DNA from: Marispirochaeta sp. | GTDB taxonomy: Bacteria > Spirochaetota > Spirochaetia > JC444 > Marispirochaetaceae | NCBI GenBank assembly: GCA_963676835.2 | Contig: CAXXFF010000004.1 | Coordinates: 128,001 to 192,000, forward strand | Direction: 5' to 3' | Length of the DNA: 64,000 nucleotides | Part shown: positions 83 to 12,431 of the stretch, in pieces | Position numbering within the stretch: the first letter of the stretch is position 1 | Layout: each line of letters begins with the position of its first letter | The notes under the pieces: model-generated | What the model was told of the DNA's origin: nothing | The model's database searches: none | What the model saw: only the letters and a program-made list of their open reading frames with translations | Translations under genes and position numbers: made by a program

Positions 83-580
83 TTAAAGCCGCAGTTTTCC
101 CAGGGTACCGCTTGCAATGGATTCACCCATAACAATGCAGATATCGTTTACGGGAGTATCGGGTCTGTCGTTTACATCCTCCGGAACCAGGTCGCCCTGG
201 GTAAGAAGGCCTCCGTCCAGAACACTGTACAGACGGTAACTTGCCTCCCGGGGAGTAAGGGCTTCTTCTTCTGAGACAGGCGCATTCAGGGAAAAATCAA
301 TCTCCAGCAGAAAGTAGGCACCGCCGCTTTTTGCAAGCCTCATGGAAAGCCTTTCCGAGGGAATATCAAGCTTTTCATTGGAGACAACAACACCTGCATT
401 GAAAACAATATGGCCCGCATCAAAGAGGGTTTCCATTACACCATCTTCCAGGGCGGCCTGCAGCTCCACAACTCCGGGTATCTCCGGATTCAGGGAGTTT
501 TTGGTAAACACCAGTACGGTCTCGCCCCAGACGGGCAGGGAAACCATAAGGGCACAGATAAGGATAAGAAGACGATTCAT
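83..580 (-). CDS. Hypothetical exported protein
   Basis: GGAGG RBS before ATG 580; signal-peptide-like MNRLLILICALMVSLPVWG. Confidence 0.75.
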   Translation of the reverse strand: MNRLLILICALMVSLPVWGETVLVFTKNSLNPEIPGVVELQAALEDGVMETLFDAGHIVFNAGVVVSNEKLDIPSERLSMRLAKSGGAYFLLEIDFSLNAPVSEEEALTPREASYRLYSVLDGGLLTQGDLVPEDVNDRPDTPVNDICIVMGESIASGTLGKLRL

Positions 581-597
581 GGATACCTCCGCTTCTA

Positions 598-624
598 GTA
601 TCGACACTAAACAGCTGAGCTTGA
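598..624 (-). promoter_or_regulatory. Putative sigma28 (FliA)-type promoter
   Basis: TCAA-N15-GTCGATAC just upstream of the RBS of the 580 gene; consensus TAAA-N15-GCCGATAA. Confidence 0.45.
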
Positions 625-661: not shown

Positions 662-1237
662 ATGGAATACTTTGTTCTACAGGTACAGACGGGAATGGAA
701 GCCAAGGTTCTCAAACTGGCCCGGACGGAACTCCGGGTAAAAGGACTGACCGAAGAGTTTACCGGCCGGCTCCTGTTTCCCCAGAGGGTACTCCATATCC
801 GCCGGCAGGGAAAAACCCGTAAGGAAAATGCCCCCATCTACCCCGGTTATCTCTTCCTGGAAGCCGAAAAGGTGGAACCCGAAGTCTACTGGGCTCTCCG
901 CCCGGTTAAGGGCATATACAAGTTCCTTAAATCCAATACAGATATTGAACCTCTCCATGGCGAAGATCGCCGTATTCTGGTACACTTTCTTGAGCACGGA
1001 GAGACAGTTGCCCTCTCCAAGGTTGTTTTCGATGAGAACAGCAGGATTGTGGTAAAGGAAGGACCCCTTAAAGGTATGGAAGGCTCCATAGTAAAGGTGG
1101 ACAGACGCAAACGGCGGGCACGGGTGCGGCTGAGCATGTATAAAGACTCGTTTACCGTGGACTTCGGGTTCGAACTTCTGGACAGTGCAACAGAGACAAA
1201 AGAAGATACTCAAGAAGAGACGAAAGCAGAAAAGTAG
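662..1237 (+). CDS. NusG-family antiterminator paralog (LoaP/UpxY-like)
   Basis: NGN domain (YFVLQVQTG...PIYPGYLF) and KOW (VKEGPLKGMEGSIVKVDRRKRRARV); the basic KOW resembles LoaP; it heads a sugar-biosynthesis operon rather than sitting with secE/rplK. Confidence 0.85.
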   Translation: MEYFVLQVQTGMEAKVLKLARTELRVKGLTEEFTGRLLFPQRVLHIRRQGKTRKENAPIYPGYLFLEAEKVEPEVYWALRPVKGIYKFLKSNTDIEPLHGEDRRILVHFLEHGETVALSKVVFDENSRIVVKEGPLKGMEGSIVKVDRRKRRARVRLSMYKDSFTVDFGFELLDSATETKEDTQEETKAEK

Positions 1238-1239
1238 GA

Positions 1240-2715
1240 ATGCAGAAAAACGCCAGGACCTTATTTATCATAGGCGCAGGCTTTGCCGGCCGGGAGATCG
1301 CTGCGGAAATCCGCACCAAGGGCACCTTTGGAAAAGTGGTGGCCTTTCTCGACGACAACCCGGCAAAAATAGGCAGCGAAATAGAAGGCGTTCCGGTTCT
1401 GGGACCGATAAAAAATGTACACCACATTAAACAGGCATGCCCGGCAGATGAAGCCCTTATCGCCATTCCCGGTGCAACCACAGCCCAGCTGAAAACAATC
1501 TACGAAGCCCTGTCATCAGCTGCATTTGAACGGATACGCATTCTGCCTAATCTTGCTCAGATAATCGACGGTGATGCCCACCTTATCCAGACAAGAGAGA
1601 TCGCAGTGGAAGACCTTTTAGGGCGCACCCCGGTGAGGATTCCCCTGAAAGAGACCTTGAGTTACCTCCGGGGCAAGCGGGTACTGATCACCGGAGCCGG
1701 CGGGAGTATCGGCTCTGAGCTTTCGCGGCAGCTTCTTTCCGCCGGCGCCGAGCGTCTCTACCTGCTGGACCACGGCGAGAACAACGTCTACGAGATTGAA
1801 AAAGAGCTGCGGATCCTCCAGGAAGAGGGAGTCGGCGAAAAGGCAACCCTGGTGCCGGTAATCGGTGACCTGAAAGACCGGGATTACACCCGCTTTATTA
1901 TAGAGAGGCTGAAAGCGGATATCGTCTTTCACTGCGCCGCCTACAAACATGTTCCCATGGCCGAGAACAATCCGGTGGAAGTGGTAAAGAACAATGTGTT
2001 CGGTACCCTGAATCTGGTGGAAGCGGTCCGGGACACCGAAACATCCCGTCTGGTGCTTATATCCACCGATAAAGCTGTTGAACCTGCCTATATCTACGGT
2101 GCCTCCAAACTTATCTGCGAAGAGGCGGTAATGTCCGGAAACAACGGCAGTCAGCATTTTATGACCGTACGTTTCGGGAATGTACTGGATTCACGGGGCA
2201 GTATAGTGCCTCTGTTCAAAAAACAGATACTCAAAGGCGGCCCGGTTACCATTACCGATGCCCGGGCCTCGCGGTTTTTCATGACCATTCCCGAAGCGGT
2301 ATCCCTGGTCCTCAAGGCGGGCAGTCTGGGAAGCGGAGGCGAGCTTTACGTACTGGATATGGGTGAACCTGTCCTTATCCGTGAGCTGGCCGAACAGATG
2401 ATCCGCTTCTACGGCTTCGAACCCGGAAGAGATATCGGTATTGAATATATCGGACTCCGGCCGGGAGAAAAACTTGAAGAAAAGCTCTGGTCCGCCGGAG
2501 AGACAAGTGAAGCAACTGATTTTCCCCGGATACTCCGGCTGACTTCCCGTGAAGGCCTCAATGGCGACCTGAGAAGCCTGGTGGAAAAGCTGCACCCTGT
2601 CTGCTATTTCGACAAGGACCGGGCCGATGAATACCGCAACCGGCGTCTTCTGCGCACAATTCTGGCAGAGTACATCCCGGGATTTGAGACAGCCGATGAT
2701 GAACCCAGATACTGA
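1240..2715 (+). CDS. CapD/PglF-like UDP-sugar 4,6-dehydratase lacking the N-terminal transmembrane region
   Basis: IIGAGFAG, EDLLGR, TGAGGSIGSEL, AAYKHVP, STDKAV, YGASK, RFGNVL, GLRPGEKL. Confidence 0.92.
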   Translation: MQKNARTLFIIGAGFAGREIAAEIRTKGTFGKVVAFLDDNPAKIGSEIEGVPVLGPIKNVHHIKQACPADEALIAIPGATTAQLKTIYEALSSAAFERIRILPNLAQIIDGDAHLIQTREIAVEDLLGRTPVRIPLKETLSYLRGKRVLITGAGGSIGSELSRQLLSAGAERLYLLDHGENNVYEIEKELRILQEEGVGEKATLVPVIGDLKDRDYTRFIIERLKADIVFHCAAYKHVPMAENNPVEVVKNNVFGTLNLVEAVRDTETSRLVLISTDKAVEPAYIYGASKLICEEAVMSGNNGSQHFMTVRFGNVLDSRGSIVPLFKKQILKGGPVTITDARASRFFMTIPEAVSLVLKAGSLGSGGELYVLDMGEPVLIRELAEQMIRFYGFEPGRDIGIEYIGLRPGEKLEEKLWSAGETSEATDFPRILRLTSREGLNGDLRSLVEKLHPVCYFDKDRADEYRNRRLLRTILAEYIPGFETADDEPRY

Positions 2716-3868
2716 TTTCCTGCCCTTCGCCCTCCCCTCTCTTGGAAAAGAGGAAGAAGAGGCGGCCCTGCGGGTAATACGCTCCGGATGGCTTACCACC
2801 GGAAGAGAGACCGCCGCCTTTGAAGAAGAATTTGCCCGCAAGGTCGGAGCCCGCTTCGCTCTGGCCCTGAACTCAGCCACCGCAGGCCTGCACCTCGGGC
2901 TGGAAGCCCTCGGCATCGGCCCGGAAAGTACAATTATAACCACACCCTACACCTTTACCGCCACAGCCGAAGCTGCCCGGTACATGGGGGCACGGATTGT
3001 CTTCTGCGATATCGGGCCTTCAGGTTTCAATATGGACCCGGAAATGCTGGAACAGTGTTTTAAACAATGCCGGGCCGAAGGGATGAATGTTCAGGCTGTA
3101 CTGCCTGTGCATATAGGCGGCGAACCATGCGGAATGACTGCAATTATGGAGCTTGCCCGGCAGTACGGGGCAGCGGTGCTGGAAGATGCGGCCCATGCCT
3201 TTCCGGTAAAATCAGACGACGGCAAATGGACCGGAACATCCGGTAATGCCGGGGTCTACTCATTCTACGCCACCAAGACCATTACCACCGGAGAGGGGGG
3301 CATGCTGGTGACCGATGACGAGGATCTCGCAGCCCGGGTACGGGTGATGCGGCTCCACGGCATAGACAGAACCATCTGGGACCGCTACACCTCTGCCTCT
3401 TCCGGCTGGAGCTACAGTGTTGTGGAAGCAGGCTACAAGTACAACATGACCGACCTTGCCGCTGCCATCGGCAGGGAGCAGCTGAAAAAAGCTGACCTGT
3501 TCCTGGAACAGCGGAGATATATTGCAGCCCGGTACCGGGAATCAATGGACGGACTGCCCGGGCTTATTCTGCCTGAAGACAAGGAAGAGCATGCCTGGCA
3601 CCTCTTTATTATCGGACTGTCCCCTGAAGCCGGAATAAGCCGGGATGCAATGATAGAAGCTTTGAGAAAACAGGGCGTCGGCACTTCGGTCCATTATATT
3701 CCCCTCCATGTAATGCCCTATTACCGCGAGCTCTACAAGCTTGAACCCGGAGATTTCCCCAATGCCTGGGAGAGGTATAAAAAATCCTTAAGTCTGCCGA
3801 TTTTTCCCGGTATGACCGACAGCCAGGTTGACAGAGTTATTGAGGCGGTCAAGAATAGTCTCGTATAA
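2696..3868 (+). CDS. DegT/DnrJ/EryC1/StrS PLP-dependent sugar aminotransferase
   Basis: SGWLTTG, EDAAHA, SFYATKTITTGEGGM, GYKYNMTD. Confidence 0.93.
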   Translation: MMNPDTDFLPFALPSLGKEEEEAALRVIRSGWLTTGRETAAFEEEFARKVGARFALALNSATAGLHLGLEALGIGPESTIITTPYTFTATAEAARYMGARIVFCDIGPSGFNMDPEMLEQCFKQCRAEGMNVQAVLPVHIGGEPCGMTAIMELARQYGAAVLEDAAHAFPVKSDDGKWTGTSGNAGVYSFYATKTITTGEGGMLVTDDEDLAARVRVMRLHGIDRTIWDRYTSASSGWSYSVVEAGYKYNMTDLAAAIGREQLKKADLFLEQRRYIAARYRESMDGLPGLILPEDKEEHAWHLFIIGLSPEAGISRDAMIEALRKQGVGTSVHYIPLHVMPYYRELYKLEPGDFPNAWERYKKSLSLPIFPGMTDSQVDRVIEAVKNSLV

Positions 3869-3880
3869 TAAACGGAGACT

Positions 3881-5914
3881 ATGGACCGCCGAAACATCAA
3901 GTACATCGACGATTATTTTGACTCACCCATGCTGCATCTGAAGATTTACCGCTCTTCCATTTCGCGGGGGTTTATCAGCCGTATTTCATATCCGGATCCT
4001 CCAGAAGGGATTTTGGTTCTTGGAGCCCAGGATATTCCCGGAGAAAACAGTCTTGAACTGGCCGCAGAAAGCAGAATGCCCCTGCTGGCAGAGGGAGAAA
4101 TCAAATATCAGGGACAGCCTGTTCTACTCATTGGTGGAGAAAATCCTGCCGAGGTGGAAGCCTTTATGCAGGCCATAGAGGTATCCTGCTACGGTATTAC
4201 CGACATGCCCGATTTTTCCCGCCCCGACGAGGCGGAAACCATAATGGAAACCCGCTTCACCGAGGGCAGGGCTCCTGCAAAGAAGCAGAAAGAACTCCGG
4301 ACACAAACAGAAGAGTACTTCATCGAAGAGACCCTTCCCTGGACCATAGATACCCAGGGAGGATATGCCTGCTTTGAGGAGGGCCGTCTTACGGTCTACT
4401 CTTCAACCCAGTGGCTCCACCATGTGCACAAGAGTGTCGCATCCGTTCTGGCGATTCCAGGGAAAGAGCTGACAGTTCGCCGGACTGCCTATTCGGCCCA
4501 GTTTGAAGAGAAGCTCTGGTATCCCTCTATTCTCGCCTGTTATGCGGCCCTTGCCGCCAGGCTCAGCGGTAAATCATCCAGACTTGTGCTGATGCCCAGG
4601 GAGAGGCTTTTCTTCGGGCCCCGGGGAACACCTTTAAGAATCCGGCATACCAGCAGTCTCGATGAGAAAGGTAAGGTTCAATCCTCCCGGGTTGCAATAG
4701 ATCTCGAATCGGGAGCTTTTTCCGTCTACTCGGAAGAAGTTCTTAAACGGGCGGCCCTGGCTTCGGTGGGGACTTACCGCAGCAGGCATACAACGGTAAG
4801 TGCCCGGTTGATAGAAACCCCCAGACGCCCTCTGGACTTTTCCCCGGGAGCAGGCGTTGCGGGATGCTTCTTTGCCTCGGAACTCCATGCCGAAGGAATG
4901 GCTGCAGAAGCAGGCACAGATCCTCTAACCTGGCGCCTGGAGAATCTGAGCGAAGCCGCAGAACCCCTGGCAGCGCTTCTTCAGAGAGTGGCGGACGAGT
5001 CGGATTTCCGCCGCAGATATGCGGCATACGAACTGGTAAAACAGCGGAGAGAGACCGCCGGATGCGGTTCACAGCCCATGAGGGGCATCGGAATAGCTGC
5101 GGTCTATCAGGGAAACGGCTTTTTCGGTCTTGGCGAAGAAGCGGGAAAATTCAAGGTGACCGCCAGACTGGAATCCGAAGGTGATCTCTACATCTACACC
5201 TCCGGGCTTTCCGGAATGCACCGCACATCCTCTCTGGCCCGCCGCCGTGCCGCGGAAATTCTCGGTATTCCCAGGGAGGGAGTACATATTATAAACGACG
5301 ATACCGACCTTGTACCGGAAAGCGGGCCCTCCGGCCTCTCCCGGAACATCACTATAGTCTACCGGCTGGTTGAGCGCTGCTGCGAAGGCATAAAGAAAAA
5401 ACGCTTCCGCAACCCTCTGCCCATAGAGGTGTCCCGCTCCTTCCGGCTGCCGGCCAAAAACCGCTGGGATGAGAAAAGCCTCAGCGGCAATCCCTATACC
5501 GCAAAATCCTGGGCCGCCTGTGTGGTGGAAATTGAGATGACCCCGGTGCTGCTTGAGCCTTCGGTACGGGGAATATGGGCCGCCATGGACTGCGGAGAGA
5601 TAGTCCACCGTCACAGAGCGGAGAGCTCGCTGGAAACAGGAATACTCCATGCTGTCGAGAGCTGCGGTTTTGACCTCAAGGAGAAGGTAGACCGGGGGAA
5701 TCCCTTTTTTCTCCCCGAATTCAGACATCTTCCGCCGATCCACCTCAGCTTCAACCGTAATTCCCTGCAGAAGTTTCCTTCCGGAATTGGAGATCTGCCC
5801 CATATTATGGTACCGCCGGCCTATGCTTCAGCCCTGAATCAGGCTGCGGGAGTGCGGTTTACCCATTTTCCTCTTTCACCCCGTAAAATACACCAGTTCA
5901 TGGAGGAAAAATGA
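3881..5914 (+). CDS. Xanthine dehydrogenase/CoxL-like large subunit with degenerate Moco motifs
   Basis: N-terminal YIDD...RS...DIPGEN, GQPV, SSTQ, DTDLVP, DCGEIV; Moco-binding motifs altered (see findings). Confidence 0.8.
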   Translation: MDRRNIKYIDDYFDSPMLHLKIYRSSISRGFISRISYPDPPEGILVLGAQDIPGENSLELAAESRMPLLAEGEIKYQGQPVLLIGGENPAEVEAFMQAIEVSCYGITDMPDFSRPDEAETIMETRFTEGRAPAKKQKELRTQTEEYFIEETLPWTIDTQGGYACFEEGRLTVYSSTQWLHHVHKSVASVLAIPGKELTVRRTAYSAQFEEKLWYPSILACYAALAARLSGKSSRLVLMPRERLFFGPRGTPLRIRHTSSLDEKGKVQSSRVAIDLESGAFSVYSEEVLKRAALASVGTYRSRHTTVSARLIETPRRPLDFSPGAGVAGCFFASELHAEGMAAEAGTDPLTWRLENLSEAAEPLAALLQRVADESDFRRRYAAYELVKQRRETAGCGSQPMRGIGIAAVYQGNGFFGLGEEAGKFKVTARLESEGDLYIYTSGLSGMHRTSSLARRRAAEILGIPREGVHIINDDTDLVPESGPSGLSRNITIVYRLVERCCEGIKKKRFRNPLPIEVSRSFRLPAKNRWDEKSLSGNPYTAKSWAACVVEIEMTPVLLEPSVRGIWAAMDCGEIVHRHRAESSLETGILHAVESCGFDLKEKVDRGNPFFLPEFRHLPPIHLSFNRNSLQKFPSGIGDLPHIMVPPAYASALNQAAGVRFTHFPLSPRKIHQFMEEK

Positions 5915-6390
5915 AGATAGAGTTTATCCTCAATGGATCCCCGGTCTCCCTGGACATTGAGTCCGACAAGCTGCTTATCGATCTTCTGCGCAACCGCTTC
6001 AATCTTATAGGTACCCATGCGGGCTGCAGAACCGGCGAATGCGGAGCCTGTATTGTACTGGTAAACGGAGAAATCTTTCATGCCTGTCTGCTGCCCATGT
6101 TTAAAGTGCGCGGCACCCGGGTAACCACTATAGAGGGCTTTGCCAGACAGCATGCCTACCGGGAGATCCTTGCAGGATTCAGGGAAGCAGGATTAAGCCC
6201 ATGCCGCTTCTGCGCTCCAGGACGCATACTGGTTACCCACTCCCTGCTTGAGCACTCCTCAAATCCGGAGGAAGAGGAAATTACCGAGGCATTCCGGGCC
6301 GTAAAATGCCGCTGCACCGACCCGAGAACCTACCAGAAAGCCGTCCAGTATGCCGGGCGCCTGAGAAGGAACAAACACCGTGTCGGCTGA
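5911..6390 (+). CDS. CoxS/XdhC-like 2x[2Fe-2S] subunit
   Basis: GCRTGECGAC...C and CRFC...CRC; TTIEG. Confidence 0.9.
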   Translation: MKIEFILNGSPVSLDIESDKLLIDLLRNRFNLIGTHAGCRTGECGACIVLVNGEIFHACLLPMFKVRGTRVTTIEGFARQHAYREILAGFREAGLSPCRFCAPGRILVTHSLLEHSSNPEEEEITEAFRAVKCRCTDPRTYQKAVQYAGRLRRNKHRVG

Positions 6391-7249
6391 ACTGCGCAGG
6401 GAACAGCGGCCTAAAAAAGTATTCACCCCGGCGGGCCTCACAGATATGCTCAACTATTATCGTGATCATCCCCGGGCTGTACCCTTCGCCGGCGGGACCT
6501 ATCTCCTGCTCACCCGGGATCTGGTCAAAAACCAAGTGTACAATGAGCTGATAGAAACAAGCAGAGTTCCAGAACTCAACCATATAAGCCGCACCGAACG
6601 CTACATGGAAATAGGCGCGGCAGTCCCCATCAGCAGGATTCTCCGTACAGGTCGTCATGTCATGCCCAGAGCACTCTATTCAGCACTCAGCCAGATAGGC
6701 GGACCGGCACTGCGCAACCAGGCAACCCTGGGAGGAAACCTCTGCAGCCCGGAACACCGGCTTTCCATATACCCCATACTGCTGCTTCTGGATGTCCGGC
6801 TGGAGCTGCGCCGTTCAGGCGGCAGCCGTTGGGTTAATCTTAACCGTTTTATCAATTCCGAAGGACGGCCTATCTTTGAAGCAGGAGAACTGCTGACCCG
6901 CATCCGGATTCCCTTTCTCAGCTGGGATGTGGAGGAGTTCCGTCAGCAGGAGCGGATTTTCTCATCTGATCATTTTATTTTCTGCGGTATAGCAAGCCGC
7001 CAGAAAGAGATCCTCAGCGATCTGCGAACCTGCTTCTGCCTGGGTAACAAGCAGGTTATCCGGGCCCGTAACGTCGAGGCCGAACTGATCGGCCGCAGAC
7101 TCCCCCTGCCGGAGGACGACCGCCGGGAAACCGCCCTTATTCTGCAGCACCAGATAGAGAGAAACCACCCCGACCTGGATCCTTTTCAGGCGGAACGGAT
7201 ACGGCGCAATATGAACTGGTTCATGCAGCGCCTGAATGAATCAATCTGA
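6380..7249 (+). CDS. CoxM/XdhB-like FAD-binding subunit
   Basis: AGGTYL, IGAAV, LRNQATLGGNL, GELLTRIRIP. Confidence 0.88.
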   Translation: MSAELRREQRPKKVFTPAGLTDMLNYYRDHPRAVPFAGGTYLLLTRDLVKNQVYNELIETSRVPELNHISRTERYMEIGAAVPISRILRTGRHVMPRALYSALSQIGGPALRNQATLGGNLCSPEHRLSIYPILLLLDVRLELRRSGGSRWVNLNRFINSEGRPIFEAGELLTRIRIPFLSWDVEEFRQQERIFSSDHFIFCGIASRQKEILSDLRTCFCLGNKQVIRARNVEAELIGRRLPLPEDDRRETALILQHQIERNHPDLDPFQAERIRRNMNWFMQRLNESI

Positions 7250-9251
7250 TCCGGAGCAGCAGATGACCGCAGAAACCCAGAAAGAAAAAACCTACAGACC
7301 ATTAAGCACGATTGAGATCAGGCGGCTGGAAGAACGGGGATCGGTCTGCACAGACTGGCAGCAGGTAATTGTTGAATCCCCCTTTGACCCGGAAAAAGTC
7401 AGCGGCTGCATCTTCAGGGGTGATGTTAGAATAGGCGCCATGAGAGAATCTGCGGTATCCGACGGGGACCTCAGCCTCCCCTCAGGTCTGTACCAGAGCA
7501 CCCTGGAAAACTGCACTATCGGTGCTGATTCTGCTCTGCACAGGGTCGGGTATTGCAGGGATTACTCCATCGGAGACAGAGTGCTGCTCTCTTCGGTCAG
7601 CGAACTCACCGCCAGTCCACGACGAAAAACCCCTCGTACAAAGCTGCCGTTCTCTTTATCCGTAATGAACGAAGCAGGGGGCAGAGAGATTTTCCCCCTC
7701 CCGGGTATGACTACTGCCATGGCCTGGGCCTGGGCAAAGTTCAGAGACAGGCTGGATTTTGTCACCGCCATGGAAAACAGTGCTCTTGCCTGGCTCAACA
7801 GCCGGCAGGGAACCTTCCCGGCATATATTGCTAATGGCGCGTCCTTAAGAAACTGTGGAGGCCTCCGCGACTCCTGCATAGGCCCCGGGAGTAGAATTAA
7901 GGGAGTCGGAAGTATTCAGGCTGTTTTTATCGACTCCAGCGAAGAGAGCCCCGTAATCATCGGCACCGGAACCTGCCTGGAGAATGGCGTTATCTCTCCC
8001 GGGTGCAGCGTTGAGAGGGGTTCCACGCTGCTTCGCTTCTTTCTTGCAGAAAATGTATCCATCGACCTGAATGCCCGGATTGTCGACACATGGGTTGGAG
8101 ACAACAGCCATATCGCATGCTGTGAAGTACGCTCAAGCCTGCTTTTTCCCGGCCATGAGCAGCATCACAACAACTCATTTCTCATTGCAGCGGAGCTTCA
8201 GGGAATGTCCAATATCGCCGCCGGGGCCACCATCGGTTCAAACCACAACAGCAGGGCTGCGGATAACGAGCTGAGTGCCGCCAGGGGATTCTGGCCGGGA
8301 CTCTGTACCAGCCTGAAACACCCGAGCCGTTTCAGCTCTTTCTGCCTTATAGCCAAAGGGGATTATCCCTCAGAGCTGAATATTCCCCTGCCCTTTTCCC
8401 TGCTCAACAATAACACTGCAGAGAATACCCTCGAGATTATGCCTGCCTACTGGTGGATCTACAACAAATACGCCCTGTTTCGAAACAGCTATAAGGTTCG
8501 ATCCAGAGATCACCGGGTACATAAAAGGCAGACTGTAACCAGTAGTTTTCTGGCTCCGGATACGGCGGATGAGATACTCAGAGCATTGGAGCTGCTCTCC
8601 GCTGCTGGAGAATCTCATAGATACGAACGTTCGCGACGGGAGGTGAAGGTACTTAAAAAGAGCCGGGCAATTGAGGCCTACAGGGAAATGCTCAGCCTGT
8701 ATGCCGCAGAAAGCATCAGCCGATGGATCCAGGCTGAAGAGCCGAAATCCTGGAATGAGGTGTTACAGAAACTTGAAAGCGAAAAAATTTCCGGCTGGCT
8801 GAATTTTGGAGGAGAGATAAGCTCTGCGTTAAGGGTGCAGACCTTTATTTCCCGGACAGCCTCAGGCGAGCTTGATTCTCTGGAGAAACAGATCGGATAT
8901 CTCAACGGACATGCCGCGGAAGAAAACAGTGCAAGGGCCTCTCATGGATTAGCAGTTTTCTCTTATCTGCTGAAAAAACAGGGGGTAGAAACAGAAAAGA
9001 CCAGCCCATCTTTAAAGGACTGGAACTCCCTGCTAACTTCTGCAACCGGGATTCTAACGACCATCGAGAAAGAAGTGGTGCAGAAACGAACAGAGGATTT
9101 TTCCGATCCCTTCCGTACCGCTCTTTACCGCTGCGAGGCCGAAAAGAGCGCAGTACTGGGAGATCCGCGAAAGAATTCCTTTGCTGAAGGAATACACAAG
9201 GAAAACAATCTGTTACGCAGACAGTTTGCAGCAGCTTCTTTGCGTTCCTGA
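7236..9251 (+). CDS. DUF4954-like protein (hexapeptide/beta-helix region)
   Basis: NEAGGREI, HIACCEV, HEQHHNNSFLIA, IGSNHNSR, RGFWPGLC motifs recalled for DUF4954. Confidence 0.75.
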   Translation: MNQSDPEQQMTAETQKEKTYRPLSTIEIRRLEERGSVCTDWQQVIVESPFDPEKVSGCIFRGDVRIGAMRESAVSDGDLSLPSGLYQSTLENCTIGADSALHRVGYCRDYSIGDRVLLSSVSELTASPRRKTPRTKLPFSLSVMNEAGGREIFPLPGMTTAMAWAWAKFRDRLDFVTAMENSALAWLNSRQGTFPAYIANGASLRNCGGLRDSCIGPGSRIKGVGSIQAVFIDSSEESPVIIGTGTCLENGVISPGCSVERGSTLLRFFLAENVSIDLNARIVDTWVGDNSHIACCEVRSSLLFPGHEQHHNNSFLIAAELQGMSNIAAGATIGSNHNSRAADNELSAARGFWPGLCTSLKHPSRFSSFCLIAKGDYPSELNIPLPFSLLNNNTAENTLEIMPAYWWIYNKYALFRNSYKVRSRDHRVHKRQTVTSSFLAPDTADEILRALELLSAAGESHRYERSRREVKVLKKSRAIEAYREMLSLYAAESISRWIQAEEPKSWNEVLQKLESEKISGWLNFGGEISSALRVQTFISRTASGELDSLEKQIGYLNGHAAEENSARASHGLAVFSYLLKKQGVETEKTSPSLKDWNSLLTSATGILTTIEKEVVQKRTEDFSDPFRTALYRCEAEKSAVLGDPRKNSFAEGIHKENNLLRRQFAAASLRS

Positions 9252-9280: not shown

Positions 9281-10378
9281 TTAAATAAGATGCAGCCGCA
9301 GGAGCTCTTCCACCACCTTTTTTCGGGTAATCGGTTTAATAACATAGGCATCCGCCTGGTCTTTGAAGCTTTTACGGATGCTGTCTGCCTCGGAAACAGA
9401 GGAGACCACAGCAATTCTTGACCGGTCGAGCCCGGCAACGCCATGATCAGCTTCCAGACTCCTCATTGACTGAAGAACCTCCCGTCCGGACATTTCGGGC
9501 AGATTGATATCGAGAATAACCAGATTATAGGTATCGTTATCCAGAAGCTTCTGCCGGAAGGCATCCACCGCTTCCCGTCCGTCGACTGCCACATCACAGC
9601 TTCCAAAAGGGCCGAGAACCGACGCTTCAAGGTGCCGGGTTGCAAAATCATCCTCTACTATCAGGATCTTAAGGTCTGAGGGAGGGTTGCTGCCGGGAGT
9701 ATCAGGCTCCGTACTTACCTGCTTCTGCGCGACAGCTGAAGAGGCAGGGTCTTTAACCGGTTGGAAGGGATCGGATATGACCTCTCTTATTTTTGTCTCC
9801 GGTTCGGCACTTTCGAAAGTCAGAGTTACGGTAACCGTTTCCTGGGCAGTATCCCAGCTCTCCGGCGGTGGATCTGCTGAAACCAGGGTTCCTATGGCGG
9901 CAATGTTCCTGAACACCGGAAGTTTGCCGAAACGCTCGGCGGATAAGCTGGTTTTTACTGTTTTATGCAGCTGCCAGCGGCCTCCGGCTGCAGTCGCATT
10001 AGAAGGTTCTTCCCGGGAAGGGGCTGCAGGGGAATCAGAACCCGAAAGATCATAGCTTGTCTCTTCCGCACTGCCGAGATTCTTCCGGGTAATATCCAGG
10101 ACAACAAGAAACTCATCCACTACACCCGGGTCAAGGGAATCCCCGGTGTTACGGCAGCGGTCCATGATATTTTCGAGGTTATGCAGCATTTTCGAGGAAA
10201 CCGGAAATCCGCCCATTCCAAGGGCGCTCTTAAGGCTGTGGGCACTGCGGAACATGGAATGAATAAGAGCCGAAGCTCCGGACTCCGCTGCTTTATGCTC
10301 ATAATCAACCAGATCCTGTTCGAGGGCATCCAGATGATCAAGTATCTCCGCCATATAGGCTTCCTGTTCGGAACTCAT
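9281..10378 (-). CDS. CheA P1(Hpt)-P2-like domains fused to a receiver domain; no kinase domain
   Basis: MFRSAHSLKS Hpt motif; C-terminal ILIVEDD...LVILDINLP...YVIKP. Confidence 0.82.
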   Translation of the reverse strand: MSSEQEAYMAEILDHLDALEQDLVDYEHKAAESGASALIHSMFRSAHSLKSALGMGGFPVSSKMLHNLENIMDRCRNTGDSLDPGVVDEFLVVLDITRKNLGSAEETSYDLSGSDSPAAPSREEPSNATAAGGRWQLHKTVKTSLSAERFGKLPVFRNIAAIGTLVSADPPPESWDTAQETVTVTLTFESAEPETKIREVISDPFQPVKDPASSAVAQKQVSTEPDTPGSNPPSDLKILIVEDDFATRHLEASVLGPFGSCDVAVDGREAVDAFRQKLLDNDTYNLVILDINLPEMSGREVLQSMRSLEADHGVAGLDRSRIAVVSSVSEADSIRKSFKDQADAYVIKPITRKKVVEELLRLHLI

Positions 10379-10403
10379 AAATCCTTACATCCTGAAAATA
10401 AAA

Positions 10404-10757
10404 TTATTCAAAATACGAATCATAGTCGTGATTCACACAATAGGTGATAAGCCGGTCAATTTCAAACTTGAAGCCGGGGAAAGTTCCGGTATATGCAGCA
10501 ATATCCCCGGCGGCGGCTGAATCTTCCAGCTGCCCGGCCAGAACTGCCGATTCCGATGCTGCCGAAGAGATTAAAGAACTGCGGATACGGTGAGCAGTCT
10601 GTCGAACCTCTTCATTCTGCTGCAGCTCCACCGCCTTTTGCAGAACAGCAAGCTCTTCCGGCAGTTTCTCCATCAGGATCCCGATAACATCCTGAAAGAG
10701 GTCGGAATCGTCCTCATAAATCTCCTTGATCATGTTCTCGTCAAAAACCGGCTTCAA
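10404..10757 (-). CDS. Stand-alone Hpt domain protein
   Basis: TTG start after GGGGAG; AHRIRSS...A..LE pattern. Confidence 0.75.
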   Translation of the reverse strand: MKPVFDENMIKEIYEDDSDLFQDVIGILMEKLPEELAVLQKAVELQQNEEVRQTAHRIRSSLISSAASESAVLAGQLEDSAAAGDIAAYTGTFPGFKFEIDRLITYCVNHDYDSYFE

Positions 10758-10761
10758 ACTG

Positions 10762-11262
10762 CTACTCCCCGTGAATTTCGTTAACCAGGGCGTCAAAGAT
10801 AGTCAGCATGTCTGATGTTGTTTTACGCAGCCGCCCGGAGATAATCTGGGCAATAGCCCGGGTTATGGGCAGTCCGATGGAAGGATTATCATTTCCCAGA
10901 GAAAGGAAATCTTTCTTTGAGATAATAAGAAACTCCGAATCCACCGCTGCAAGTACCGTGGCGGAACGCTTGTCATCATCAATAAGAGCCAGTTCGCCGA
11001 AGAACACATTATTCTCCGCCTTCAGGCTCACCACCGTATAGTTATCCCCGGCCCGGGTCTGCTTGAGAATTTCCACCCCGCCGCTTAAGACAACGAACAT
11101 TTCGCTTCCGATGTCCCCTTCGCTGATTATGGTCTCCCCTCCCTTATAGCGTCTGGTGCGGCAGATTTCAATAAGCTTGTCCATATCTTCCGGTGTTTTG
11201 CTCACCTCTTTAAACAGGGAGATCTTTTCAAGGCGCTCCCGGACATTCTGGTTCTCGCTCAT
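10762..11262 (-). CDS. Cyclic-nucleotide-binding domain protein (no HTH)
   Basis: IISEGDIG, FFGELALID..KRSATV. Confidence 0.88.
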   Translation of the reverse strand: MSENQNVRERLEKISLFKEVSKTPEDMDKLIEICRTRRYKGGETIISEGDIGSEMFVVLSGGVEILKQTRAGDNYTVVSLKAENNVFFGELALIDDDKRSATVLAAVDSEFLIISKKDFLSLGNDNPSIGLPITRAIAQIISGRLRKTTSDMLTIFDALVNEIHGE

Positions 11263-12431
11263 GAGGCTTCACTCCTGCGTTCAAGTATGATTGCCATTGA
11301 ATGGGGACGGATCACATATTCATCGGAAGGCACAAAGACCGGCCGGTTTACTTCAAGCCCTTTCACCTTCTGCAGGTTGGTAACCAGGGCAGAGACATCG
11401 GATGTCTTCTGTGCATTGCGAAGAGCCTCAATCTTCATTCTGTTGGGCGAACCGGTATTTTCCAGAATCCCCAGGAGTACCGTATCCTCAAAGGCCCGGA
11501 AACCCTCTTTGTAGAGACCGAAGGTTTGCCCGATGTACTCTCTGGGAATATTCACCGTACCAAGAGCGGCTCCCCCTTCATCTGCACTGATGAGATCCTG
11601 AATAATGTGAGACATGCCGTTTACAATACTGGAGCGGGAGAGTATTTTACGGGAAAGATCCCGGGTAAAGATAACCTCATCACAGTCGGCATGTTTCAGA
11701 TAGCTCTCATACTTGCGGTCCAGAAGTTCCGCAGTGGTATATATATCCTTGGAAATCGCCTTTATGGTCAGCACGGTCATAACCGTTTTTGAGTCGGTTT
11801 CAGAGACAATGGAACTCTCAAATGTATCAGCTAAAATAAGCACCTTCCGGGCCCTGCGCACATTTGCCCGGCTGAGGGTGGCTTCCGAGAAATAGTCACC
11901 CCTGACGAACTTCAGCCCCTTAAGCTCCGAAACCTCTTTCAGCTCTTCTACGGTATCAGACTCAATATTGGAAATAAGGACAATCTTCTCGTCAGTCAAA
12001 TCGCTGCCTTCAAGAATGTCCAGAAGAATATCCCGCATATGCGCTTTCCACCCGCACACTATCAGATGGTCAGATAACTTGGGAAAATCCATCAATCCCC
12101 TCCTTGCTCGGGTGTTTCGCTCCACGAAGATTGAAGCCAGAGTACCGGACAGGGCACTGGTTGCGGCAATCCCTAAAAATATGGAAAGAACCGCTACAAT
12201 ACGTCCGGCACTGGTCATGGGAACTTTATCGCCGTAGCCTGTAGTTGAAAAGGTAATTATGGCCCACCAGAGGCCGTCCATAACATCCGCAAACTGATCG
12301 TTGGAGTTATTCTCCAGAAAATAGACAAGTCCGCCGGTCACCAGAAAAACCGAGAAAAAGAACAGTGCTATTCTCACCAGAGCAGAGTCAAAAAGATTAT
12401 TGAAAAACCGCTTTAAACGTTTATATGCCAT
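11259..12431 (-). CDS. 2-TM potassium channel with RCK (TrkA-N) domain
   Basis: WWAIITFSTTGYGD selectivity filter; HLIVCGW RCK start. Confidence 0.9.
   Translation of the reverse strand: MAYKRLKRFFNNLFDSALVRIALFFFSVFLVTGGLVYFLENNSNDQFADVMDGLWWAIITFSTTGYGDKVPMTSAGRIVAVLSIFLGIAATSALSGTLASIFVERNTRARRGLMDFPKLSDHLIVCGWKAHMRDILLDILEGSDLTDEKIVLISNIESDTVEELKEVSELKGLKFVRGDYFSEATLSRANVRRARKVLILADTFESSIVSETDSKTVMTVLTIKAISKDIYTTAELLDRKYESYLKHADCDEVIFTRDLSRKILSRSSIVNGMSHIIQDLISADEGGAALGTVNIPREYIGQTFGLYKEGFRAFEDTVLLGILENTGSPNRMKIEALRNAQKTSDVSALVTNLQKVKGLEVNRPVFVPSDEYVIRPHSMAIILERRSEAS

Follow-up and report, generated by a model that had tools for sequence, protein, structure and literature searches.

In a 64,000-nucleotide stretch of the Marispirochaeta sp. 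genome (contig CAXXFF010000004.1, positions 128,001 to 192,000; hereafter the window), positions 662-9251 read as a run of seven co-oriented plus-strand open reading frames (ORFs), in which a NusG paralog and two amino-sugar genes, capD and degT, precede a xanthine dehydrogenase (XDH)-like trio of large (L), small [2Fe-2S] (S) and medium FAD-binding (M) subunits. The L proteins of this type form a single clade, in which the motifs for the molybdenum cofactor (Moco) have been lost, while the XDH fold and purifying selection have been kept; L is thus predicted to be a Moco-free pseudo-enzyme subunit. The explanation that we favor, with a probability of about one half, is that two functions share one operon, in which capD and degT would start a flagellin glycan and the trio would be a Moco-free FAD/[2Fe-2S] electron-transfer complex with a housekeeping role. 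The electron-transfer role is the weakest step of this explanation, and it is from sequence that we infer the cofactors and assembly of the complex, the partner with which it exchanges electrons and the sugar that is produced. The genes of the run are as follows.

662..1237, plus strand: LoaP-class NusG paralog (191 aa; NF033641, 147 bits against a cut-off of 125)
1240..2715, plus strand: CapD/PglF-like UDP-GlcNAc 4,6-dehydratase (491 aa; PF02719; T-D-K and YxxxK motifs)
2696..3868, plus strand: DegT-family pyridoxal phosphate (PLP) aminotransferase with catalytic Lys194 (PF01041; best NCBIfam model PseC, below its cut-off)
3881..5914, plus strand: XDH-like large subunit L (677 aa; PF02738/PF20256/PF01315; Moco and catalytic motifs gone)
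5911..6390, plus strand: small subunit S with two [2Fe-2S] ligand sets (PF00111 and PF01799)
6380..7249, plus strand: FAD-binding medium subunit M (289 aa; PF00941)
7236..9251, plus strand: DUF4954 protein, a left-handed beta-helix (PF16314)

The spacings, from 5' to 3', are +2, -20, +12, -4, -11 and -14 nt, in agreement with a preliminary description of the window that had noted seven co-oriented genes which overlap or lie no more than 12 nt apart, and the order of families given there (LoaP, CapD, DegT, XDH-like large, FeS and FAD subunits, DUF4954) is upheld by the Pfam and NF033641 matches. The closest named homologs of L come from Marispirochaeta, and the genome carrying the window (G000) is 97% complete. 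Genomes, loci and families are referred to below, where needed, by our own index numbers (G, L with three digits, and f, respectively).

Loss of the molybdenum-cofactor motifs

The 171 full-length L proteins were divided by two motifs into 31 canonical proteins and 140 clade members, nine loci without an L of at least 560 aa having been dropped. Both motifs, GGxFGGK and RG[FY]G, occur in 31/31 canonical and 0/140 clade proteins; for these two the division is partly circular, and the features outside it concur. Positions were mapped on bovine xanthine oxidase (XO; chain 3sr6_C), whose residue roles at the mapped L and S positions (E802, Q581 and the catalytic Glu) we take as given. G[QN]G is found in one of the 140 clade members against 31/31 canonical proteins, the E802-equivalent residue in none against 30 of 31, and Gln at the Q581 column in 4% against at least 95%; the T484 and A486 columns of the TxASR motif are also lost in the clade. 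The column of the catalytic Glu (GEP motif) holds Glu in 64/140 clade members, compared with 31/31 canonical proteins. Aligned with solved enzymes, the L protein of the window has other residues in its Moco loops: GGGFGGKE is replaced by SAQFEEKL (205-212), AFRGFG by FSPGAG (320-325), GQG by GMHR (445-448) and GEP by GDLP (637-640), with Asp638 at the catalytic position. New residues have become fixed instead: Trp178 (91% of the clade, against none), Trp213 (78%, against none), Pro514 and Gln654. Among 146 newly returned top profile hits from a search of 1.8 billion proteins, none had GGxFGGK and one had RG[FY]G.

A FastTree phylogeny parted 58 clade rows from 33 others by one branch, with one change and an SH-like support of 100, and the family labels mostly cluster in it, as vertical descent predicts; its deep branching is approximate because it covered 91 of 185 rows. 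The motif-based clade is thus recovered independently by the tree and by the gene order described below, which supports the division. The fold has persisted: the AlphaFold2 (AF2) model of L has a mean confidence (pLDDT) of 91.5, with Foldseek TM scores of 0.82-0.88 to XDH, aldehyde oxidoreductase and 4-hydroxybenzoyl-CoA reductase.

The S protein of the window has all eight cysteines of the two [2Fe-2S] ligand sets, C39/44/47/59 and C98/101/133/135. Seven of these positions are kept in 128-132 of 135 proteins and C133 in 111/135, whereas Gln97, which precedes C98 in 31/31 canonical proteins, is outside the four commonest residues in the clade. S proteins missing one or both ligand sets are encoded at L166:9645-10112, L085:9615-10094 and L056:11926-12546. 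In M, the FAD motifs AGGT and RNxATxGGN are largely kept (of 131 proteins, G38 in 127, T40 in 118, T116 in 128, G119 in 131 and N120 in 112), with two canonical Asp residues (AGGTD, SPxxD) replaced. Its AF2 model reaches a pLDDT of 93.8, and its top ten Foldseek matches are flavoprotein subunits (TM 0.75-0.80). Since the Moco motifs are lost and those for FeS and flavin mostly kept, the trio is likely to be a molybdenum-free electron-transfer complex. Judged by its sequences, it resembles the flavin/FeS arm of an XO-family enzyme and fails as a molybdoenzyme on the motifs tested; its Moco-free status appears highly probable. The proposal of a repurposed flavin/FeS complex in the preliminary description accordingly fits as to repurposing, and not as to the sugar role assigned to it.

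It is worth comparing the trio with the XO-family heterotrimers, such as the XDHs of R. capsulatus and bovine origin, 4-hydroxybenzoyl-CoA reductase, quinoline 2-oxidoreductase and aerobic CO dehydrogenase. The three subunit types and their folds are shared, as are the two [2Fe-2S] ligand sets and most of the FAD motifs. In contrast, the Moco loops, the Arg and Gln contacts to the pterin and usually the catalytic Glu are replaced here, XdhC and MoeA are mostly missing from the genome, and the proteins form one clade in one bacterial class. The entry for a Moco-free CO dehydrogenase structure (1ffu) indicates that such an L-S-M scaffold can assemble without the cofactor. In the predicted mechanism, M would bind FAD and exchange hydride with NAD(H), S would relay single electrons over its two [2Fe-2S] clusters, and L would lend its XDH fold as a scaffold, in which the remodeled former Moco pocket, with the clade-specific Trp178 and Trp213, may dock either an outside acceptor of the flavodoxin/ferredoxin type or a small ligand.

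The trio diverges fast, with a mean identity of 29-34%, compared with 58% for CapD, 49% for DegT and 47% for canonical L; correlations of pairwise identity among the genes were not used, co-evolution being inseparable from shared ancestry. This divergence and the lost catalytic motifs would suit a relic in decay that persists through operon inertia. Such a relic is, however, very improbable, given the dN/dS of L (0.04-0.20 in nine unsaturated pairs, a tenth pair being saturated), the expression in one relative, the presence of the trio in 76/76 genomes, including one of 1.1 Mb, and the clade-specific conserved residues. On the dN/dS values and the RNA, a pseudogene was rejected.

Gene order and transcription in Spirochaetia

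We examined 80 loci obtained by a genome scan, together with 116 stretches taken from a sample of the phylum. The tallies cover the first 180 loci, 140 of which carry the L clade; the denominators are loci with enough room, and the tallied loci, which contain close kin and a few duplicates, are not independent. Around clade L genes, S and M lie downstream in 128/129 loci, degT immediately 5' in 121/134, capD within 4.5 kb in 108/126, and loaP is adjacent in 65/117; dnaE-yggT-recG follows the trio in 42/128. Beside the L genes of canonical XDH loci we found degT in 0/28, capD in 0/25, loaP in 0/23 and dnaE in 0/26. The arrangement of degT, capD and loaP with the trio is thus far beyond chance, and the survey of neighborhoods that had been called for bears out the linkage of the XDH-like genes to degT and capD in relatives. 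The ancestral order was likely ligA, a gene for a SPOR protein and an ORF (divergent), then wzz-like, loaP, capD, degT, L, S, M, dnaE, yggT, recG and rsmD-like. Even in the smallest genome sampled (G094, 1.1 Mb), capD-degT-L-S-M is present, without loaP. The locus tags TP0077-TP0081 of T. pallidum, named in the preliminary description for a similar run, were not found in the literature searched.

The proposal of a conserved spirochaete module holds for the order loaP-capD-degT-L-S-M, which is old in Spirochaetia, and not for the DUF4954 gene, which stands directly 3' of M in only 3/128 loci, all from close relatives of G000, and for that reason is not counted in the module. Found in 70 of 80 genomes searched, it is single-copy and mostly at other sites, so it has been relocated here in this lineage; a seven-gene module including it was rejected, and an Atlas search returned only DUF4954 clusters. 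The gene lies near the block on the opposite strand in L069 and L181; it is present in the flagellin-less family f6, and no match was obtained in f5, so that its distribution loosely resembles that of the trio.

For transcription, three raw-read runs of one study were available from one relative, G261. Sense depth over degT-L-S-M was 13-177, the molecule ends accumulated at 1587-1597, close to where degT starts, and coverage was almost nil 700 nt upstream, while loaP and capD, about 13 kb away behind inserted genes, were covered separately, with coverage falling after capD. These data are consistent with a degT-L-S-M transcript, and the sequenced strain may differ upstream. The operon as proposed therefore finds support in the continuous sense RNA over four genes, and not for loaP and capD, which are separate there.

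Its description as antiterminator-led is likewise borne out in part: the NusG paralog belongs to the LoaP family by its NF033641 score, but loaP is adjacent in about half of the loci and the hairpins expected in its leader are not enriched. UNCG leader hairpins occurred in 3 of the 72 upstream regions, compared with 1.9 in shuffled sequences, with none in the window; the scan covered 200 nt upstream of loaP, so that the target of LoaP may lie elsewhere. Promoter and terminator scans were also at shuffle level (6 against 5.8 and 12 against 11.3, respectively). The LoaP family has been reported in Spirochaetota, as outlined in PMC12691694, and the LoaP of Bacillus velezensis, in the same outline, resembles the present one in heading a long operon; here, in contrast, UNCG hairpins are not enriched, the intergenic region is about 80 nt and terminator-like sites remain at shuffle level.

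That short intergenic region of about 80 nt is common to loaP and to a divergent gene.

83..607, minus strand: conserved divergent ORF of no known family (no Pfam or NCBIfam match)

In many Spirochaetia loci, this ORF is syntenic with a gene for a SPOR protein followed by ligA. On the other side of the run, positions 9281-12431 (minus strand) hold a convergent run encoding an Hpt-receiver protein, an Hpt protein, a cNMP-binding protein and an RCK-domain potassium channel. Several further features of the block were seen in relatives. Of the first 80 loci, 12 have a Wzz-like gene (GNVR domain) 5' of loaP or capD (for example, L011:5402-6694 and L068:6108-7352), which hints at a possible further use of the sugar in a surface polysaccharide. 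In genus g2, the gap between capD and degT is an insertion hot spot (L183:8791-16538, L187:5261-19573 and L188:4783-19992), filled by arrays of S41 peptidases, CAAX proteases and a C39 ABC exporter with HlyD, with repeats of about 250 bp between them. Just 5' of loaP in one of these loci (L187:3163-3208) lies a 40-nt repeat common to a very abundant RNA encoded elsewhere in the same genome; thousands of reads match it partly, and further copies lie between the inserted genes. In G339 (L170:9221-10765), a single 514-aa ORF follows L in the place of S and M, possibly an S-M fusion.

The sugar genes and the distribution of the trio

The CapD protein is nearest, among solved structures, to PglF/WlaL (239-243 bits, compared with 145 for 2gn4), and it scores 182.5 with the PseB model TIGR03589, below the cut-off of 407.75; T-D-K and YxxxK are kept in 116/119 CapD proteins. 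The CapD proteins of the clade all have Tyr at residue 286, the position of a Met in wild-type PglF; the PglF variant chain 5bjy shows the same substitution. For DegT, the best NCBIfam model is that of PseC (TIGR03588, 375.8 against a cut-off of 423.5), LegC scoring 221, and ArnB is the nearest solved structure; the Schiff-base Lys is kept in 122/126 proteins. The neuB gene lies elsewhere in the genome, apart from capD-degT. Like PseB/PseC and PglF/PglE, the pair thus consists of an SDR dehydratase with T-D-K and a PLP aminotransferase with Lys, and it occurs with NeuB and flagellin; it differs in that its PglF-like dehydratase has Tyr at the PglF Met and no membrane domain found by Pfam in the CapD of the window, and in that both scores fall below the PseB and PseC cut-offs. 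The flagellins of T. denticola bear a pseudaminic acid (Pse)-like glycan requiring PseI (PMC9862357). Judging from these resemblances, capD and degT are likely to encode a PseB/PseC-like start of the flagellin nonulosonate (Pse-like) glycan.

The distribution of the trio was determined in a 401-genome phylum sample by an alignment of M together with checks of the loci (75 of 76 checked); a narrow alignment of L was unsuited to this purpose, for it failed to detect the intact locus of G148 and picked up canonical XDHs as well. Matches to M were obtained in 76/76 genomes of the same class outside the small-genome family f5 and in 0/11 within it, and those matches outside the class that were examined, a subset, were canonical. 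Family f5 is presumably Borreliaceae, which are known for a life without iron proteins. An ortholog of capD (E below 1e-110) was found in 66 of the 76 genomes, and the trio is kept in the remaining 10.

Flagellin, sought in 32 genomes, was not found in eight (3/3 in f6 and 5/5 in f12). In none of the eight was an ortholog of capD or degT found (22 genomes having been searched for degT), and NeuB was not found in seven of them, while it is present in all other non-f5 genomes tested. All eight nevertheless retain L-S-M with the cysteines of S intact, the L of G228 being cut by the contig end. Because the flagellin-less genomes drop capD and degT and keep the trio, it follows that the two sugar genes track flagella and the nonulosonate synthase, and the trio does not. 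An ortholog of capD was also not found in the flagellated G218 and G327 and in G401; capD is without a degT ortholog in G208 and G270, and it is remote from the trio in G238 and G402-G405. Independence of the trio from the sugar pathway is therefore a well-founded expectation, if a less firm one than its Moco-free status. As to the flagellin or surface glycosylation suggested earlier, the co-occurrence of CapD and DegT with flagellin and NeuB speaks for it in the case of these two enzymes, and the trio, which does not track flagella, falls outside it.

It had been proposed in the preliminary description that the flavin/FeS complex takes part in nucleotide-sugar modification; in a more specific form, it would reduce or otherwise modify, in flagellated spirochaetes, the CapD/DegT nucleotide sugar or its acyl substituent. 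The position of degT immediately 5' of L and the continuous sense coverage over degT-L-S-M are arguments for this proposal, as is a known pairing: in the synthesis of 3,6-dideoxyhexoses, E1 enzymes of the DegT family work together with FAD/[2Fe-2S] reductases. The E1/E3 pair (RfbH with AscC/AscD) is alike in that a DegT-family enzyme stands next to a FAD/[2Fe-2S] protein. In E1/ColD-type dehydrases, however, His replaces the Schiff-base Lys, whereas the DegT of the window has Lys194 and an RfbH score of 152 against a cut-off of 423, and the flavoprotein is of the XDH type. A deoxysugar dehydrase-reductase pair of the E1/E3 kind was therefore rejected, because DegT, in keeping its catalytic Lys, is no E1/ColD-type dehydrase in need of a flavin/FeS reductase. 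The persistence of the trio in 10 of 76 genomes without a capD ortholog found, all eight flagellin-less ones included, and its separation from capD in G238 and G402-G405 also stand against the proposal, which we regard as unlikely. A complex prediction of L (residues 120-677) with DegT scored 0.00 in two runs; no controls were folded, and it is not used as evidence either way.

Cofactor supply and the orphan XO-family proteins

In f2, a family grouping with named Treponemataceae records in the tree, the trio is present in 52/52 genomes. Five of 80 genomes gave a match to MoeA, none of them among the 52 of f2; XdhC was above its cut-off in 10 of 80 and in three of the 52, where it adjoins a second, canonical-type XDH. 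In G000, no match was obtained for MoaA-C, MoaC, MoeA, MogA-type proteins or XdhC. The same genome encodes three large subunits of the canonical XDH family in which every Moco motif is present, two of them in one long cluster (G000:C2:1470768-1521690), so that the absence of Moco genes is only supportive of the Moco-free status; G354 likewise has canonical XDH subunits without MoeA and XdhC. These cases suggest cofactor uptake or an unrecognized route. XdhC chaperones are usually needed for the maturation of bacterial XO-family enzymes, in the account outlined in PMC2997495. The xdhC-linked loci L030, L053, L062 and L075 (G402-G405) have dnaE downstream, motifs already degenerate and capD elsewhere, and may represent evolutionary intermediates.

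Several observations weigh against the explanation by two functions, at each of its parts. As to electron transfer, several or all cysteines of S are lost in about six loci with the three genes intact: the S of G094 is without its four N-terminal cysteines, those of G193 and L056 are without nearly all, and those of L053, L062 and L075 are without several. The AGGT motif was not found in the M of G136, G399 and G390 and is altered in that of G228, all four genomes being flagellin-less. As to the loss of Moco, Gln177 is kept in 87/140 clade members and the catalytic Glu in the 64 noted above, xdhC adjoins L in four deep-branching members, three of whose four genomes have MoeA, and, given the canonical XDHs of G000 and G354, missing Moco genes alone prove little. 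As to the independence of the trio, the losses of capD and degT occurred in few lineages (f6, f12, G218, G327 and G401), in which non-detection in a draft is not proof, and it is degT that is the tightest neighbor of L and shares its coverage block in G261, with capD split off. Finally, CapD is closer to the non-inverting PglF than to PseB, so that the product may belong to the Pse or to the legionaminic acid/bacillosamine (Leg/Bac) type.

If the clade were still a molybdo- or tungsto-enzyme, holding an imported or altered cofactor through non-canonical residues, then the intact fold of L, the partly kept Gln177 and Glu638, the adjacent xdhC of the four deep-branching loci and the possible cofactor uptake in genomes with canonical XDHs and without Moco genes would all find an explanation. 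We consider this improbable, since the pterin-contact loops, the Arg and Gln contacts of L and the Gln of S are all replaced together, the canonical XDHs of the same Moco-less genomes keep every motif, and XdhC was not found in 49/52 f2 genomes.

The losses in S and M point in another direction, namely that the trio is a non-catalytic scaffold or a sensor, whether of redox state or of a bound purine or pterin, on another machine, possibly that of DNA replication and repair or of transcription, for which electron transfer is dispensable. The three genes persist despite eroded FeS cysteines or FAD motif and diverge fast under purifying selection. The dnaE-yggT-recG genes, downstream in 42/128 loci, are still beside the trio in flagellin-less genomes, and loaP remains directly 5' of L after the loss of capD-degT (L005, L107, L136 and L137). 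Against such a role, seven of the eight cysteines are kept in at least 128/135 proteins and the core FAD motifs in most, the link to dnaE is broken in most f2 genomes and in the window, and no binding partner was identified. A scaffold or sensor is therefore doubtful, though it is the alternative that we take most seriously, and we retain the two-function explanation with an electron-transferring trio.

The present clade bears on a published question. Peng et al. (2018) described hundreds of genomes with molybdoenzyme homologs and no Moco pathway, and called for tests; they found no sequence feature that marks these orphans, and left their use of molybdenum open (PMC6147048). Their Table S1 has at least one XO-family protein for each of 19/19 Treponema genomes, of which 15 are scored as having no Moco pathway; the two Borrelia rows shown have no such protein (PMC6147048). 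It is very likely that these orphan proteins of Treponema belong to the clade described here; relative to that survey, the clade-wide loss of motifs, the synteny and the distribution are added. A description of the clade or operon was not found in the literature searched, outside which most subscription journals lie, so that an earlier description is possible.

On balance, we think it probable that an XDH at the root of Spirochaetia lost its molybdenum and turned into a core complex of the whole class: a Moco-free flavo-iron-sulfur member of the XO family, its pocket remodeled to suit a new partner. Even the treponemes with the smallest genomes would need this complex, and only f5 would be without it. 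The clade provides a sequence answer to the question of the orphan XO-family proteins, in that it offers a clear mark and a test case that can be purified. It also speaks against the annotation "xanthine dehydrogenase / molybdopterin", which would be incorrect for a set of core genes in most spirochaetes, including the treponemes. From their phyletic match with flagellin and NeuB, capD and degT emerge as the likely genes for the first two enzymes in the synthesis of the spirochaete flagellin glycan, and the trio, conserved and expressed and present in a 1.1-Mb genome, would be a missing piece of spirochaete redox physiology.

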